From IMG/VR virus record IMGVR_UViG_2724679236_000008: a stretch of DNA of 64,000 bases. One strand, given 5' to 3'. Positions 2,979 to 14,924 of this stretch are shown piece by piece; position 1 is the stretch's first letter; every line of letters begins with the position of its first letter. The stretch comes from a virus (taxonomy: Duplodnaviria; Heunggongvirae; Uroviricota; Caudoviricetes). Under the pieces are notes generated by a model. That model was not told the origin of the DNA. It searched no databases and saw only the letters and a list, made by a program, of their open reading frames with translations. The position numbers and the translations under genes were made by a program.

Positions 2979-4540
2979 ATGAAAATGACAAGTATTCAAC
3001 AACGTGCAGAGCTTCATCGTCAAATCTGGCAAATTGCTAACGATGTCAGGGGTTCGGTCGATGGATGGGATTTTAAGCAATACGTTCTGGGCGCACTTTT
3101 CTACCGTTTTATCAGCGAAAATTTTTCCAGCTATATTGAAGCCGGTGATGACAGTATCTGTTATGCGAAACTGGATGACAGCGTAATTACTGATGACATT
3201 AAAGACGATGCCATCAAAACTAAAGGCTACTTCATCTACCCAAGTCAGCTTTTCTGCAACGTAGCTGCGAAAGCAAATACCAATGACAGACTGAATGCAG
3301 ATTTAAACAGTATCTTCGTTGCTATCGAAAGTTCTGCTTACGGTTACCCTTCAGAAGCTGACATCAAAGGTTTGTTTGCTGATTTCGATACCACCAGTAA
3401 CCGCCTGGGTAACACCGTTAAGGATAAAAATGCCCGCCTGGCTGCGGTTCTGAAAGGGGTTGAAGGGTTAAAACTTGGTGACTTCAACGAACATCAGATT
3501 GACCTGTTCGGCGATGCCTATGAGTTCCTGATTTCTAACTATGCGGCGAATGCTGGTAAGTCAGGCGGCGAGTTTTTTACACCGCAGCATGTCTCTAAGC
3601 TGATTGCACAACTGGCTATGCACGGGCAGACCCACGTTAACAAAATCTACGACCCAGCCGCAGGTTCCGGTTCGCTGTTGTTACAGGCGAAAAAGCAGTT
3701 TGATGACCATATCATCGAAGAAGGCTTTTTTGGTCAGGAGATCAACCATACGACCTATAACCTGGCGCGTATGAACATGTTTTTGCACAACATCAACTAC
3801 GACAAGTTTGATATCAAGCTGGGCAATACGCTGACTGAGCCGCACTTCAGAGATGAAAAACCGTTTGATGCCATCGTTTCTAACCCGCCATATTCGGTGA
3901 AATGGATTGGCAGTGATGACCCGACGCTGATTAACGATGAACGTTTTGCCCCTGCTGGCGTTCTGGCCCCAAATCAAAAGCTGACTTCGCCTTTGTACTA
4001 CATGCGCTGAACTATCTTTCTGCCAAAGGTCGTGCTGCGATTGTCTGCTTCCCGGGTATTTTTTACCGTGGCGGCGCAGAGCAGAAAATCCGTCAGTATC
4101 TGGTCGACAATAACTATGTCGAAACCGTGATTTCACTGGCACCGAATCTGTTCTTTGGCACCACTATTGCCGTAAACATTCTGGTGCTGTCTAAACATAA
4201 AACGGATACCAAAGTTCAGTTTATTGATGCCAGCGAGCTGTTTAAAAAAGAAACTAACAACAATACCCTGACCGATGCCCATATCGAACAGATTATGCAG
4301 GTATTTGCCAGCAAGGAAGATGTTGCTCATCTGGCGAAATCTGTTGCGTTTGAGACTGTTGTCGCGAATGACTATAACCTGTCGGTGAGCAGCTATGTGG
4401 AAGCGAAAGATACTCGCGAAATTATCGATATCGCTGAGTTGAATGCAGAGCTGAAAAGCACCGTCGGCAAAATCGACCAGTTGCGCAAAGATATTGATGC
4501 GATTGTGGCTGAAATTGAAGGCTGCGAGGTGCAGAAATGA
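2979..4540 (+). pseudogene. hsdM: type I R-M methyltransferase subunit HsdM, interrupted by a 1-nt frameshift at the CCCCAAA tract (3967-3973)
   Basis: Frame 1 (2979-4010) has N6-adenine MTase motifs including NPPYSVKW, then stops. Frame at -1 continues [63 protein letters not shown] to 4540. Combined length about 520 aa. Confidence 0.85.
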
Positions 4541-5730
4541 GCGAGATGAGTTATCTGGAAAAATTGCTGGATGGGGTTGAGGTTGAGTGGTTGCCATTGG
4601 GGGAAGTCTCAGCCTTAAGAAGAGGCAGAGTTATGTCAAAGGGATATTTAACTGAAAATTTTGGCCCATATCCTGTCTATAGCTCTCAAACTGCAAATAA
4701 TGGGAAAATAGGTTCTATCAATACCTTCGATTTTGATGGCGAATATATAAGCTGGACAACAGATGGCGCAAATGCAGGCACTGTGTTCTATCGAACAGGT
4801 AAATTTTCAATAACTAATGTTTGCGGCCTGATTACATTAAAAAGTAAATACCCATTAATCTACAAATTTCTGTTTTACTGGCTAACAATAGAAGCCAAAA
4901 AACATGTTTACTCAGGAATGGGAAACCCCAAGTTAATGAGTCATCAGGTTGAAAATATACCTGTACCAATCCCCTGCCCGGATAATCCGGAAAAATCCCT
5001 TGCCATCCAGTCTGAAATCGTCCGGATTCTGGATACATTTACTGCAATTACCGCTGAGCTTAACATGCGTAAAAAACAGTACAACTACTATCGCGACCGG
5101 TTATTTAGTTTTGGTGCCCACGATGTTAAACGTCTGAAATTAGGAGAGCTATGTGTAATTGGAGACGGTTTGCATGGTACTCCAGAATATGACGCCAACG
5201 GTGATTATTTCTTTATCAATGGAAACAATTTAGGCTATCAAAAAATATCATTTAACGATAACACAAAAAAGGTTAATGATTCTATGTTTAAAAAACACGG
5301 AATTCATTTTGACCCAATAAATACTGTTTTCCTGTCAATTAATGGCACAATTGGAAATGTTTCCTTTTACAATAATGAGAAGATCGTACTCGGTAAGTCT
5401 GTGGCCTATTTTAAAATTAAATCACCTGAACTCCACACTAGATATCTTTTCTATTTCCTGCAAACCAATTACGCAAAACAGTATTTTGAAAATCAAAAAA
5501 CAGGTTCAACTATTAAAAACTTAGGTTTAAAATCGTTGAGAGCATTTGAAATACCTATCCCATCATACGATGAACAACTTTATATCGTCGCCACGATGGA
5601 TAAATTTTACAACCTGACAAACTCCATCACCGAAGGCCTTCCGCGTGAAATCGAGTTGCGCCAGAAACAATACGAATACTACCGTGATTTACTTTTCAGT
5701 TTCCCGAAACCTGAAACTGTCAGTAATTAA
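4537..5730 (+). CDS. hsdS: type I R-M specificity subunit HsdS, 397 aa, type IC-like
   Basis: Two AT-rich variable target-recognition regions separated by conserved TAEL...[15 protein letters not shown] and C-terminal [26 protein letters not shown] overlap with hsdM end. Confidence 0.9.
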
Positions 5731-5851
5731 TTGACCATTGCTACCGATCGGGCCACCTTAACACCCGGTCAGTATATAGACTATTTTTTACGCGCCGGAA
5801 GTCACTCTTAACGCCCTTCCGGCTCTTGCCAGGCGGCACAAAGGATGCGCT

Positions 5852-14097: not shown

Positions 14098-14676
14098 TTA
14101 AGCAGCATACAACCACTTGTCGCCGTTCAATACATGCTCAATAGCCTCACCCTTTTTAAGGCTTATGTATTCCAGGATGGCGGTTATCGCTTGTTCTGCA
14201 CCATACGCAAGAACGACGTAGTAACCTTCCTCTCTAAGCCTGCGCATCCAGGCGATCTGCTCTTTCGTCGGGGCTTTACCATTTGGTTCTTTAAGCTCAA
14301 TTCGCATGCCGTGATAAATACCGCATGCTTTATCGAGACTCATGTCCGGATAACCTTTTTTCTGCCCTTCAGCCTTCATTTTCCCGGCGGTTGCTTTTGA
14401 ACGTTTCCCTCCGTTAGGCGTTGCATGCAACAGCTCATAGATGTCAGGGTGCTTGCGTTCGAAGTAATCAAAAATGAAAACCTGCTCGAAGTGCTCGCAA
14501 TTTCCGTCGCGCAGGTCTGGGGTCTTTGCCAGTGCTGCAAGTGCCTTCGCATGTGGAGAAACTTCTTTTACCGGCGCAAGCGATAAGAATGGATCCTTTT
14601 TGGTTTTTGGCCTGGACCGCCCCTTATTTCGACGCTCACTAAAAGCCTGAAACTCTTCCTCAGTAAAGCGCAACAT
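14098..14676 (-). CDS. VRR-NUC domain nuclease (PD-(D/E)XK), 192 aa
   Basis: GYPDMSL...ELKEPNGK...EQIAWMRRL core typical of VRR-NUC. Confidence 0.7.
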   Translation of the reverse strand: MLRFTEEEFQAFSERRNKGRSRPKTKKDPFLSLAPVKEVSPHAKALAALAKTPDLRDGNCEHFEQVFIFDYFERKHPDIYELLHATPNGGKRSKATAGKMKAEGQKKGYPDMSLDKACGIYHGMRIELKEPNGKAPTKEQIAWMRRLREEGYYVVLAYGAEQAITAILEYISLKKGEAIEHVLNGDKWLYAA

Positions 14677-14678
14677 AA

Positions 14679-14924
14679 TCAGTCAAATCCTGCCGGTCGC
14701 ATGCCATATTTACGCTGTTTTGCGGCCTGCTCTTCCCTGTGCCATTGCGCACATTCAGCGTCACAATAAATGCCTGATTCAATCGATTCATTGCAGTAAC
14801 GACACTTCCCTGTAAATACCTGGCTCACGACCTGTGTCTGCTTTCTGATGTTATCGATGGCCATGTCTTTGAGAGCTTCTAACTGATTCATGCTCAGCTC
14901 TGCATCATCAACACGTTCTGCCAA
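14679..14924 (-). CDS. C4 zinc-ribbon protein (TraR/DksA-like small phage protein), 81 aa
   Basis: CRYC-x9-C-x3-C cluster; stop 2 nt before the VRR-NUC start. Confidence 0.6.
   Translation of the reverse strand: MAERVDDAELSMNQLEALKDMAIDNIRKQTQVVSQVFTGKCRYCNESIESGIYCDAECAQWHREEQAAKQRKYGMRPAGFD

Follow-up and report, generated by a model that had tools for sequence, protein, structure and literature searches.

A type IC hsd cassette with a frameshifted hsdM at a known variable slot of a P1-like plasmid prophage

The locus and its boundaries

The stretch of DNA considered here, 64,000 nucleotides (nt) of IMG/VR record IMGVR_UViG_2724679236_000008 (hereafter the window), can be identified as a P1-like (IncY) plasmid prophage, in which the hsdM, hsdS and hsdR genes of a type I restriction-modification (R-M) system lie directly beside the phd-doc addiction module. 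A megablast search of window positions 1-18000 against phage records matched P1, P7, RCS47, SJ46 and other Punavirus genomes at 96-98% identity, and the remainder of the window is likewise P1-like. Comparison with the P1 reference (NC_005856, to which all P1 locus coordinates refer) suggested that a type IC hsd cassette with a broken hsdM has replaced a P1 module in this prophage and stands beside ordinary P1 genes, a reading to which we assign a probability of roughly 85%.

BLAST alignment with P1, which the original prediction had proposed as a check, gives sharp boundaries at 2878/2879 and 9043/9044. Window positions 4-2878 correspond to P1 locus 501-3375 (98.0% identity, 0 gaps) and positions 9044-18000 to P1 locus 6863-15819 (98.2% identity, 0 gaps). 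The only non-P1 sequence in window 1-18000 is 2879-9043, which spans 6,165 bp and has a guanine-cytosine content of 43%, versus 48-49% in the flanks. P1 locus 3376-6862 (3,487 bp), carrying humD, lxr, hot, upfO, upfN, upfM, pmgV, pmgU and pmgT, has no counterpart in the window; the missing UmuD-like open reading frame (ORF) was thus correctly remarked on, P1 humD being part of this segment. The flanks are collinear and of high identity, and the replacement is confined to the pmgT...humD segment, known as "variable region 8" of the P1-like phage-plasmids from a 2022 survey (PMC9603915). The features at the edges of the cassette are as follows.

2201-2581, minus strand: doc, toxin of the P1 addiction module, P1 backbone flanking the cassette on the left; identical to P1 Doc at 126 of 127 positions, counting the stop (99%), at constant offset
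2581-2802, minus strand: phd, the antitoxin, 100% identical to P1 Phd; its promoter region reaches the junction
2878-2879, no strand: left junction, after which identity to P1 collapses base by base; the P1 equivalent lies just inside the humD 3' end
2879-2978, plus strand: cassette leader upstream of hsdM, non-P1, presumably holding the hsdM-hsdS promoter
9043-9044, no strand: right junction, where P1 homology restarts at locus 6863, in P1 a few bases before the start codon of pmgT

The adjacent phd and doc genes, identical or nearly identical to those of P1, make up a P1 Phd-Doc module, and in the P1 record Pphd lies immediately before the left junction. Both junctions coincide with marks in the P1 record, the left one with the end of the misc_feature "upstream of EcoDXXI hsd locus" (locus 3376) and the right one with the start of the "downstream of EcoDXXI hsd locus / R124/3 hsdR" features (locus 6863). 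In this respect the cassette resembles the P1-flanked type IC loci EcoDXXI, EcoR124 and EcoprrI, but it is carried by a complete P1-like prophage and not by a conjugative plasmid or a chromosome. A scan of the cassette flanks for repeats or recombination scars, as the original prediction had suggested, found no direct or inverted repeats and no scars at either junction, only short chance matches.

The original prediction had taken about 12 kb, 2979-14924, for accessory cargo between phd-doc and the structural genes. The hsd genes are genuine accessory cargo, but this cargo amounts to 6.2 kb, and the remaining 9044-14924 is P1 backbone.

A cassette of the EcoR124/EcoDXXI family

The cassette comprises the following genes and signals.

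2979-4540, plus strand: hsdM, type IC methyltransferase subunit, pseudogene; Pfam HsdM_N and N6_Mtase split over two frames
4537-5730, plus strand: hsdS, specificity subunit of 397 amino acids (aa), intact; two Pfam Methylase_S domains
5758-5787, plus strand: sigma-70-like promoter, candidate for a separate hsdR promoter; consensus scan TTAACA-18-TATTTT, 9/12, a pattern match only
5852-8968, plus strand: hsdR, translocase/endonuclease subunit of 1038 aa, intact; Pfam HSDR_N, SWI2_SNF2/ResIII, T1R_D3-like and EcoR124_C
8986-9013, no strand: perfect hairpin CTTGCGGGTT...AACCCGCAAG, inside the cassette directly after hsdR, read from the sequence

Type I enzymes methylate a bipartite target as an M2S1 complex, the target being set by the two recognition domains of HsdS and by the length of the TAEL spacer helix, whereas the R2M2S1 complex translocates and cuts unmodified incoming DNA, thereby protecting the lysogen. 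HsdR has no activity outside its complex with M2S.

The type I M, S and R models of PADLOC match the four reading-frame pieces of the cassette, and several features place it in type IC (EcoR124/EcoDXXI family). The order is hsdM-hsdS followed by hsdR, with a promoter-sized gap of 121 bp before hsdR, as in EcoR124I/EcoR124II of plasmid R124 (PDB 2w00, 7bst). HsdR aligns with EcoR124I HsdR (PDB 2w00_A) over its full length, 1-1038, at 2288.7 bits, and carries the EcoR124-type C-terminal domain (Pfam EcoR124_C, 241.6 bits); it is also identical to the HsdR of the CT02 plasmid at 1036 of 1039 positions (stop included). HsdM, once a single C is restored, is 520 aa long and identical to EcoR124 HsdM (PDB 7bst_D) at 514 of 520 positions. 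In HsdS, the N-terminal, central and C-terminal conserved regions match those of EcoR124 HsdS (7bst_A) and the central helix has a TAEL motif, present as a single copy, but both target-recognition domains (TRDs) differ, and the DNA target would therefore differ from that of EcoR124. In addition, the P1 record marks the sequence downstream of R124/3 hsdR as homologous to P1 at exactly the right junction of the window. What the cassette lacks is a full set of three intact subunit genes, as hsdM is frameshifted; the hsd locus is thus best described as a type IC member by descent, of which this copy is pseudogenised.

As for expression, the hsdS start overlaps the hsdM stop (ATGA), and hsdM-hsdS may form one translationally coupled unit, with hsdR behind a promoter of its own. 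The 121-bp gap between hsdS and hsdR contains no ORF and is too short for a prrC gene, and the cassette differs in this from EcoprrI, which has prrC between hsdS and hsdR. On neither strand is there a T-run 3' of the hairpin at 8986-9013, for which a terminator role is only putative.

The same cassette, in the same phd-pap position and with the same flanks, is found in the phages vB_EcoM-673R5 (ON470615) and phi456 (OR339795) and in the plasmids pEA4_97 (NZ_CP117679) and that of Escherichia coli CT02 (NZ_CP081699), at 97-100% nucleotide identity to the window outside the hsdS recognition domains. Differences lie in the hsdS alleles, with TRD1 swapped and two or three TAEL repeats, and hsdM is intact in the CT02 plasmid and in the other PLSDB records listed.

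The hsdM frameshift and its consequence

The lesion in hsdM maps to one short homopolymer.

3967-3970, plus strand: frameshift site, four C residues (C4) where intact alleles have five (C5), by alignment with the CT02 plasmid and phage 673R5

Overlooked in the original prediction, this 1-nt deletion splits hsdM into ORFs of 343 aa and 137 aa: the first frame stops at 4008-4010 and the rest of the gene continues in the -1 frame to the stop at 4538-4540. The predicted effect is truncation of HsdM after residue 343, with loss of the C-terminal third.

An artefact of homopolymer sequencing or assembly, which would leave the cassette a normal active EcoR124-type system, was favoured at first. The lesion consists in the loss of one nt from a G/C homopolymer, darA in the same window is broken by a second frameshift of this type (G5 to G4), and each of the two is a singleton among hundreds of plasmid records. 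At the hsdM site 643 PLSDB records match the stretch, and among the matches listed only pEA4_97 spans 141 rather than 142 nt. This IncY plasmid of Escherichia albertii BIA_4 (NZ_CP117679.1, 97 kb) is the plasmid record closest to the window, with 100% identity over 2700-9300, and its gene table has no hsdM entry, as evident from a gap in the locus tags and from its absence in the protein table. However, the window differs from pEA4_97 by 11 mismatches in 60,956 nt, spans the origin of that record and is interrupted by an N10 run, and is therefore an independent, scaffolded draft assembly of a near-identical plasmid. The exact HsdS protein was further found on the Logan assemblies of three runs (DRR017165, DRR017166 and DRR017167); those of DRR017165 and DRR017166 cover the site with the same C4 and match the window without a single mismatch over 7.2 and 2.6 kb, respectively. 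Moreover, 11.8 kb of flanking P1 backbone contains no indel relative to P1. The artefact explanation was dropped in view of the independent draft and the two Logan assemblies, and we now consider it very improbable. Because C4 is seen in four assemblies (the window, the complete pEA4_97, and Logan DRR017165 and DRR017166), the change from C5 to C4 is a real mutation.

A phase-variable tract at this site was also considered and rejected, the run being only 4-5 C long and the other PLSDB records listed spanning 142 nt, not 141.

Since HsdR acts only through the M2S core and the C-terminal third of HsdM is removed, the hsd copy of the plasmid is most likely inactive, probably for both modification and restriction. 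With hsdS and hsdR still intact, the cassette would have decayed recently.

Several points weigh against this. Inactivity is read from sequence only, and the recombination route proposed below for the arrival of the cassette is likewise inferred from conserved flanks. Within a type I family subunits complement one another, and the missing HsdM could be provided in trans from a chromosomal type IC locus; E. coli chromosomes contain sequence related to the hsdS probe at 862 places. The zero-frame CAA AAG directly past the deletion could permit rare -1 ribosomal slippage. Furthermore, the frameshifted lineage is present in several assemblies from different sources without further decay of hsdS or hsdR, which implies either that the loss happened very recently or that selection still acts on the remaining genes; apart from its single deletion, hsdM is 99% identical to EcoR124 HsdM. 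These observations would fit an hsd locus that still functions, either with HsdM provided in trans, in which case the plasmid would add an extra specificity subunit and HsdR to the resident type IC system, or through slippage or reversion in the C run, which would yield some full-length HsdM. Nevertheless, known contingency tracts are far longer than a C4/C5 run, the 142-nt span of the other PLSDB records listed indicates that the site is no hotspot of variation, and neither a stimulatory structure nor conservation supports programmed frameshifting. HsdS translation is also coupled to hsdM through the ATGA overlap, and a stop 530 nt upstream probably lowers HsdS. On balance we regard continued function as unlikely and retain the interpretation of a recently inactivated cassette.

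The second frameshift mentioned above lies in darA, which encodes an internal head protein of P1 and belongs to the Dar anti-restriction system. The gene occupies 63452-64000 on the plus strand and runs past the window end; the G5 to G4 deletion at 63763-63766 alters the reading frame past about residue 105. Compared with P1 and the other PLSDB records listed (471 match this stretch) the deletion is a singleton, but it is common to the window and pEA4_97. The N10 run, at window 60960-60969, corresponds to 112 nt in pEA4_97 and adjoins the invertible tail-fibre C-segment/cix region.

A single spacer repeat in HsdS

The central helix of HsdS contains a repeat whose copy number varies among relatives.

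5050-5061, plus strand: the one TAEL spacer repeat of the HsdS central helix, codons read from the sequence

The window has one TAEL copy, EcoR124I and the CT02 plasmid have two (TAELTAEL), EcoR124II has three, and phage 673R5 has three (TAELTAELTAEL). Two repeats give an N6 spacer, as in EcoR124I, and three give an N7 spacer, as in EcoR124II (Loenen et al., PMC3874165). The TRD1 of the window (4590-5110) recurs in other PLSDB plasmids with 12, 24 or 36 additional nt; the matched lengths of 533, 545 and 557 nt in plasmids and chromosomes, versus 521 here, correspond to 2, 3 and 4 TAEL copies of 12 bp each. This length series is consistent with natural spacer-length variants arising from unequal crossing-over at the 12-bp repeat.

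Among PLSDB records the one-repeat hsdS allele occurs in pEA4_97 only, and a search of one genome per species (185,579 species) for the single-TAEL allele gave one match, a Thalassotalea metagenome-assembled genome with a similar TRD1. In that marine gammaproteobacterium (Thalassotalea sp., CAZUHQ010000003.1, 1131-4099), a type IC-like hsdM-hsdS pair has a single TAEL and a TRD1 very similar to that of the window; as in the window, two ORFs make up its hsdM, and its hsdS has an aberrant extension at the C terminus.

The single-TAEL HsdS could represent a natural type IC specificity with a shortened (N5-type) spacer, used despite the broken plasmid hsdM with the help of chromosomal HsdM, reversion or slippage, although we think this distinctly improbable. 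If true, the element would supplement a resident system with "specificity plus nuclease" and would not be a dead cassette.

The adjacent reverse-strand genes

To the right of the cassette, the interval up to 14924 is occupied by promoters retained from P1 and by ten genes, all on the minus strand.

9189-9233, minus strand: retained P1pmgT/P2pmgT promoters and C1 operator OpmgT (Op88), from the P1 annotation shifted by +2181
9233-9739, minus strand: pap, P1 gene
9812-11074, minus strand: pmgS, P1 gene
11076-11294, minus strand: pmgR, P1 gene
11376-12077, minus strand: pmgQ, P1 gene
12074-12766, minus strand: ppp, P1 gene
12748-13374, minus strand: pmgP, P1 gene
13272-13934, minus strand: pmgO, P1 gene
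13876-14031, minus strand: pmgN, P1 gene
14098-14676, minus strand: pmgM, P1 gene
14679-14924, minus strand: pmgL, P1 gene

These had been counted as nine uncharacterised reverse-strand genes and put forward as the likeliest place for an undescribed system, within a 12-kb accessory island (2979-14924) of defence or anti-defence genes. Several of them do lack an assigned function in P1 ("putative morphogenetic"), their products include enzyme folds (HAD/PNKP phosphatase, metallophosphatase, VRR-NUC and glycosyltransferase-like), and most pap-pmgL genes were scored non-essential for plaque formation (PMC10695390). However, all ten have the lengths and order of their P1 counterparts at a constant offset, with 95-100% amino-acid identity, no internal stops and a gap-free nucleotide alignment at the canonical position, and their proteins belong to P1 PHROG families. 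Moreover, pap-pmgL is invariant between P1, P7, RCS47 and the element in the window. The PADLOC defence models, run on the ORFs of the interval, matched only type I M, S and R, with two marginal LmuB matches (E about 1e-4) on the coiled-coil PmgS and weak PDC matches on Doc, and Rfam at gathering thresholds gave no RNA family in window 1-16000. The same genes at the same place in P1, the finding named beforehand as refuting the prediction, were thus found for 9044-14924, about half of the interval, and the one R-M system present belongs to the EcoR124/EcoDXXI family. We give the island explanation next to no credence; pap-pmgL are best regarded as ordinary early/"morphogenetic" backbone genes of P1, outside any cargo. 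In sum, hsd beside phd-doc was correctly sighted, whereas size and novelty were overstated.

The gene next to the cassette, pap (9233-9739, minus strand), matches a polynucleotide-kinase 3'-phosphatase (HAD_PNKP) domain. T4 polynucleotide kinase repairs tRNA cut by the PrrC nuclease, which is associated with the type IC EcoprrI locus. As pap is a P1 backbone gene, its adjacency to a type IC cassette is probably coincidental.

Conservation includes the Op88 operator ATTGCTCTAATAAATCT, at 2 mismatches over 65 nt. With pmgT replaced, the PpmgT promoters now point into the 3' end of hsdR, and antisense transcription from them into hsdR on induction is conceivable.

Elsewhere in the window, further stretches have no megablast match in P1 (23459-23895, 31781-34155, 39688-41581, 58823-60105 and 60311-60969), and these correspond by position to the tciA/trn, repA/par-proximal and rlfA/rlfB/pmgF regions and the tail-fibre C-segment. 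Near 39.7-41.6 kb, the pEA4_97 annotation has an Ail/Lom family outer-membrane protein and a helix-turn-helix protein. All of these look like further known variable regions of P1-like elements.

The variable slot and the origin of the swap

The slot between phd-doc and pap has been recognised as variable; P1 has SOS/replication accessory genes and small ORFs there, and the window an R-M cassette. At least three alternative gene sets occupy it: the P1 type, the RCS47 type (ea/eaa, DUF551 and ASCH genes plus hot and humD) and the hsd type, in agreement with the proposal of a variable locus next to phd-doc. The hsd type is common. A 120-nt probe for the phd|hsd junction (2819-2938, including the first 60 nt of the leader) is conserved in 720 PLSDB plasmids, versus 440 with the P1-type phd|humD junction, and at least 80% of window 2700-9300 is present in 475 PLSDB plasmids. 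The match also extends through the hsd stretch in phages 673R5 and phi456, whose records have R-M annotations at that place.

The P1 genes exchanged appear dispensable, since pmgT/U/V, upfN/O, hot, lxr and humD were all non-essential in a P1 CRISPR interference screen (PMC10695390). We propose that the 3.5-kb module humD-lxr-hot-upfO/N/M-pmgV-pmgU-pmgT was exchanged for the 6.2-kb type IC cassette by homologous recombination in shared flanks, with phd-doc on one side and the region upstream of pmgT together with pap on the other. Homologous recombination would be the simplest route, as type IC hsd loci of other plasmids are bordered by these same flanks and the junctions are free of repeats and scars; the absence of flanking direct or inverted repeats favours it over transposition. 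An hsd cassette at this slot of P1 is an arrangement already known, documented since 1997: an article by Tyndall et al. of that year (Mol Microbiol 23:729) reportedly concerns type IC hsd loci flanked by P1 DNA, to judge from its title in reference lists. The new observations are at the level of alleles only, namely the reproducible hsdM frameshift, the one-repeat hsdS and the darA frameshift.

Implications

The interval is best seen as a textbook case of module exchange in a slot already known to vary, and its cargo belongs to the best-studied type I family carried by plasmids; it matters little beyond correct annotation. No hidden system lies in the genes neighbouring the cassette, and the "putative morphogenetic" P1 genes pap-pmgL are backbone, though their functions are poorly known. 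As regards the lineage itself, it carries lesions in both a restriction gene (hsdM) and an anti-restriction gene (darA), and would thus have lost, or be losing, its own restriction cassette together with part of its anti-restriction equipment. In addition, the one-TAEL hsdS allele may be usable to test the minimum length of the type IC spacer helix.

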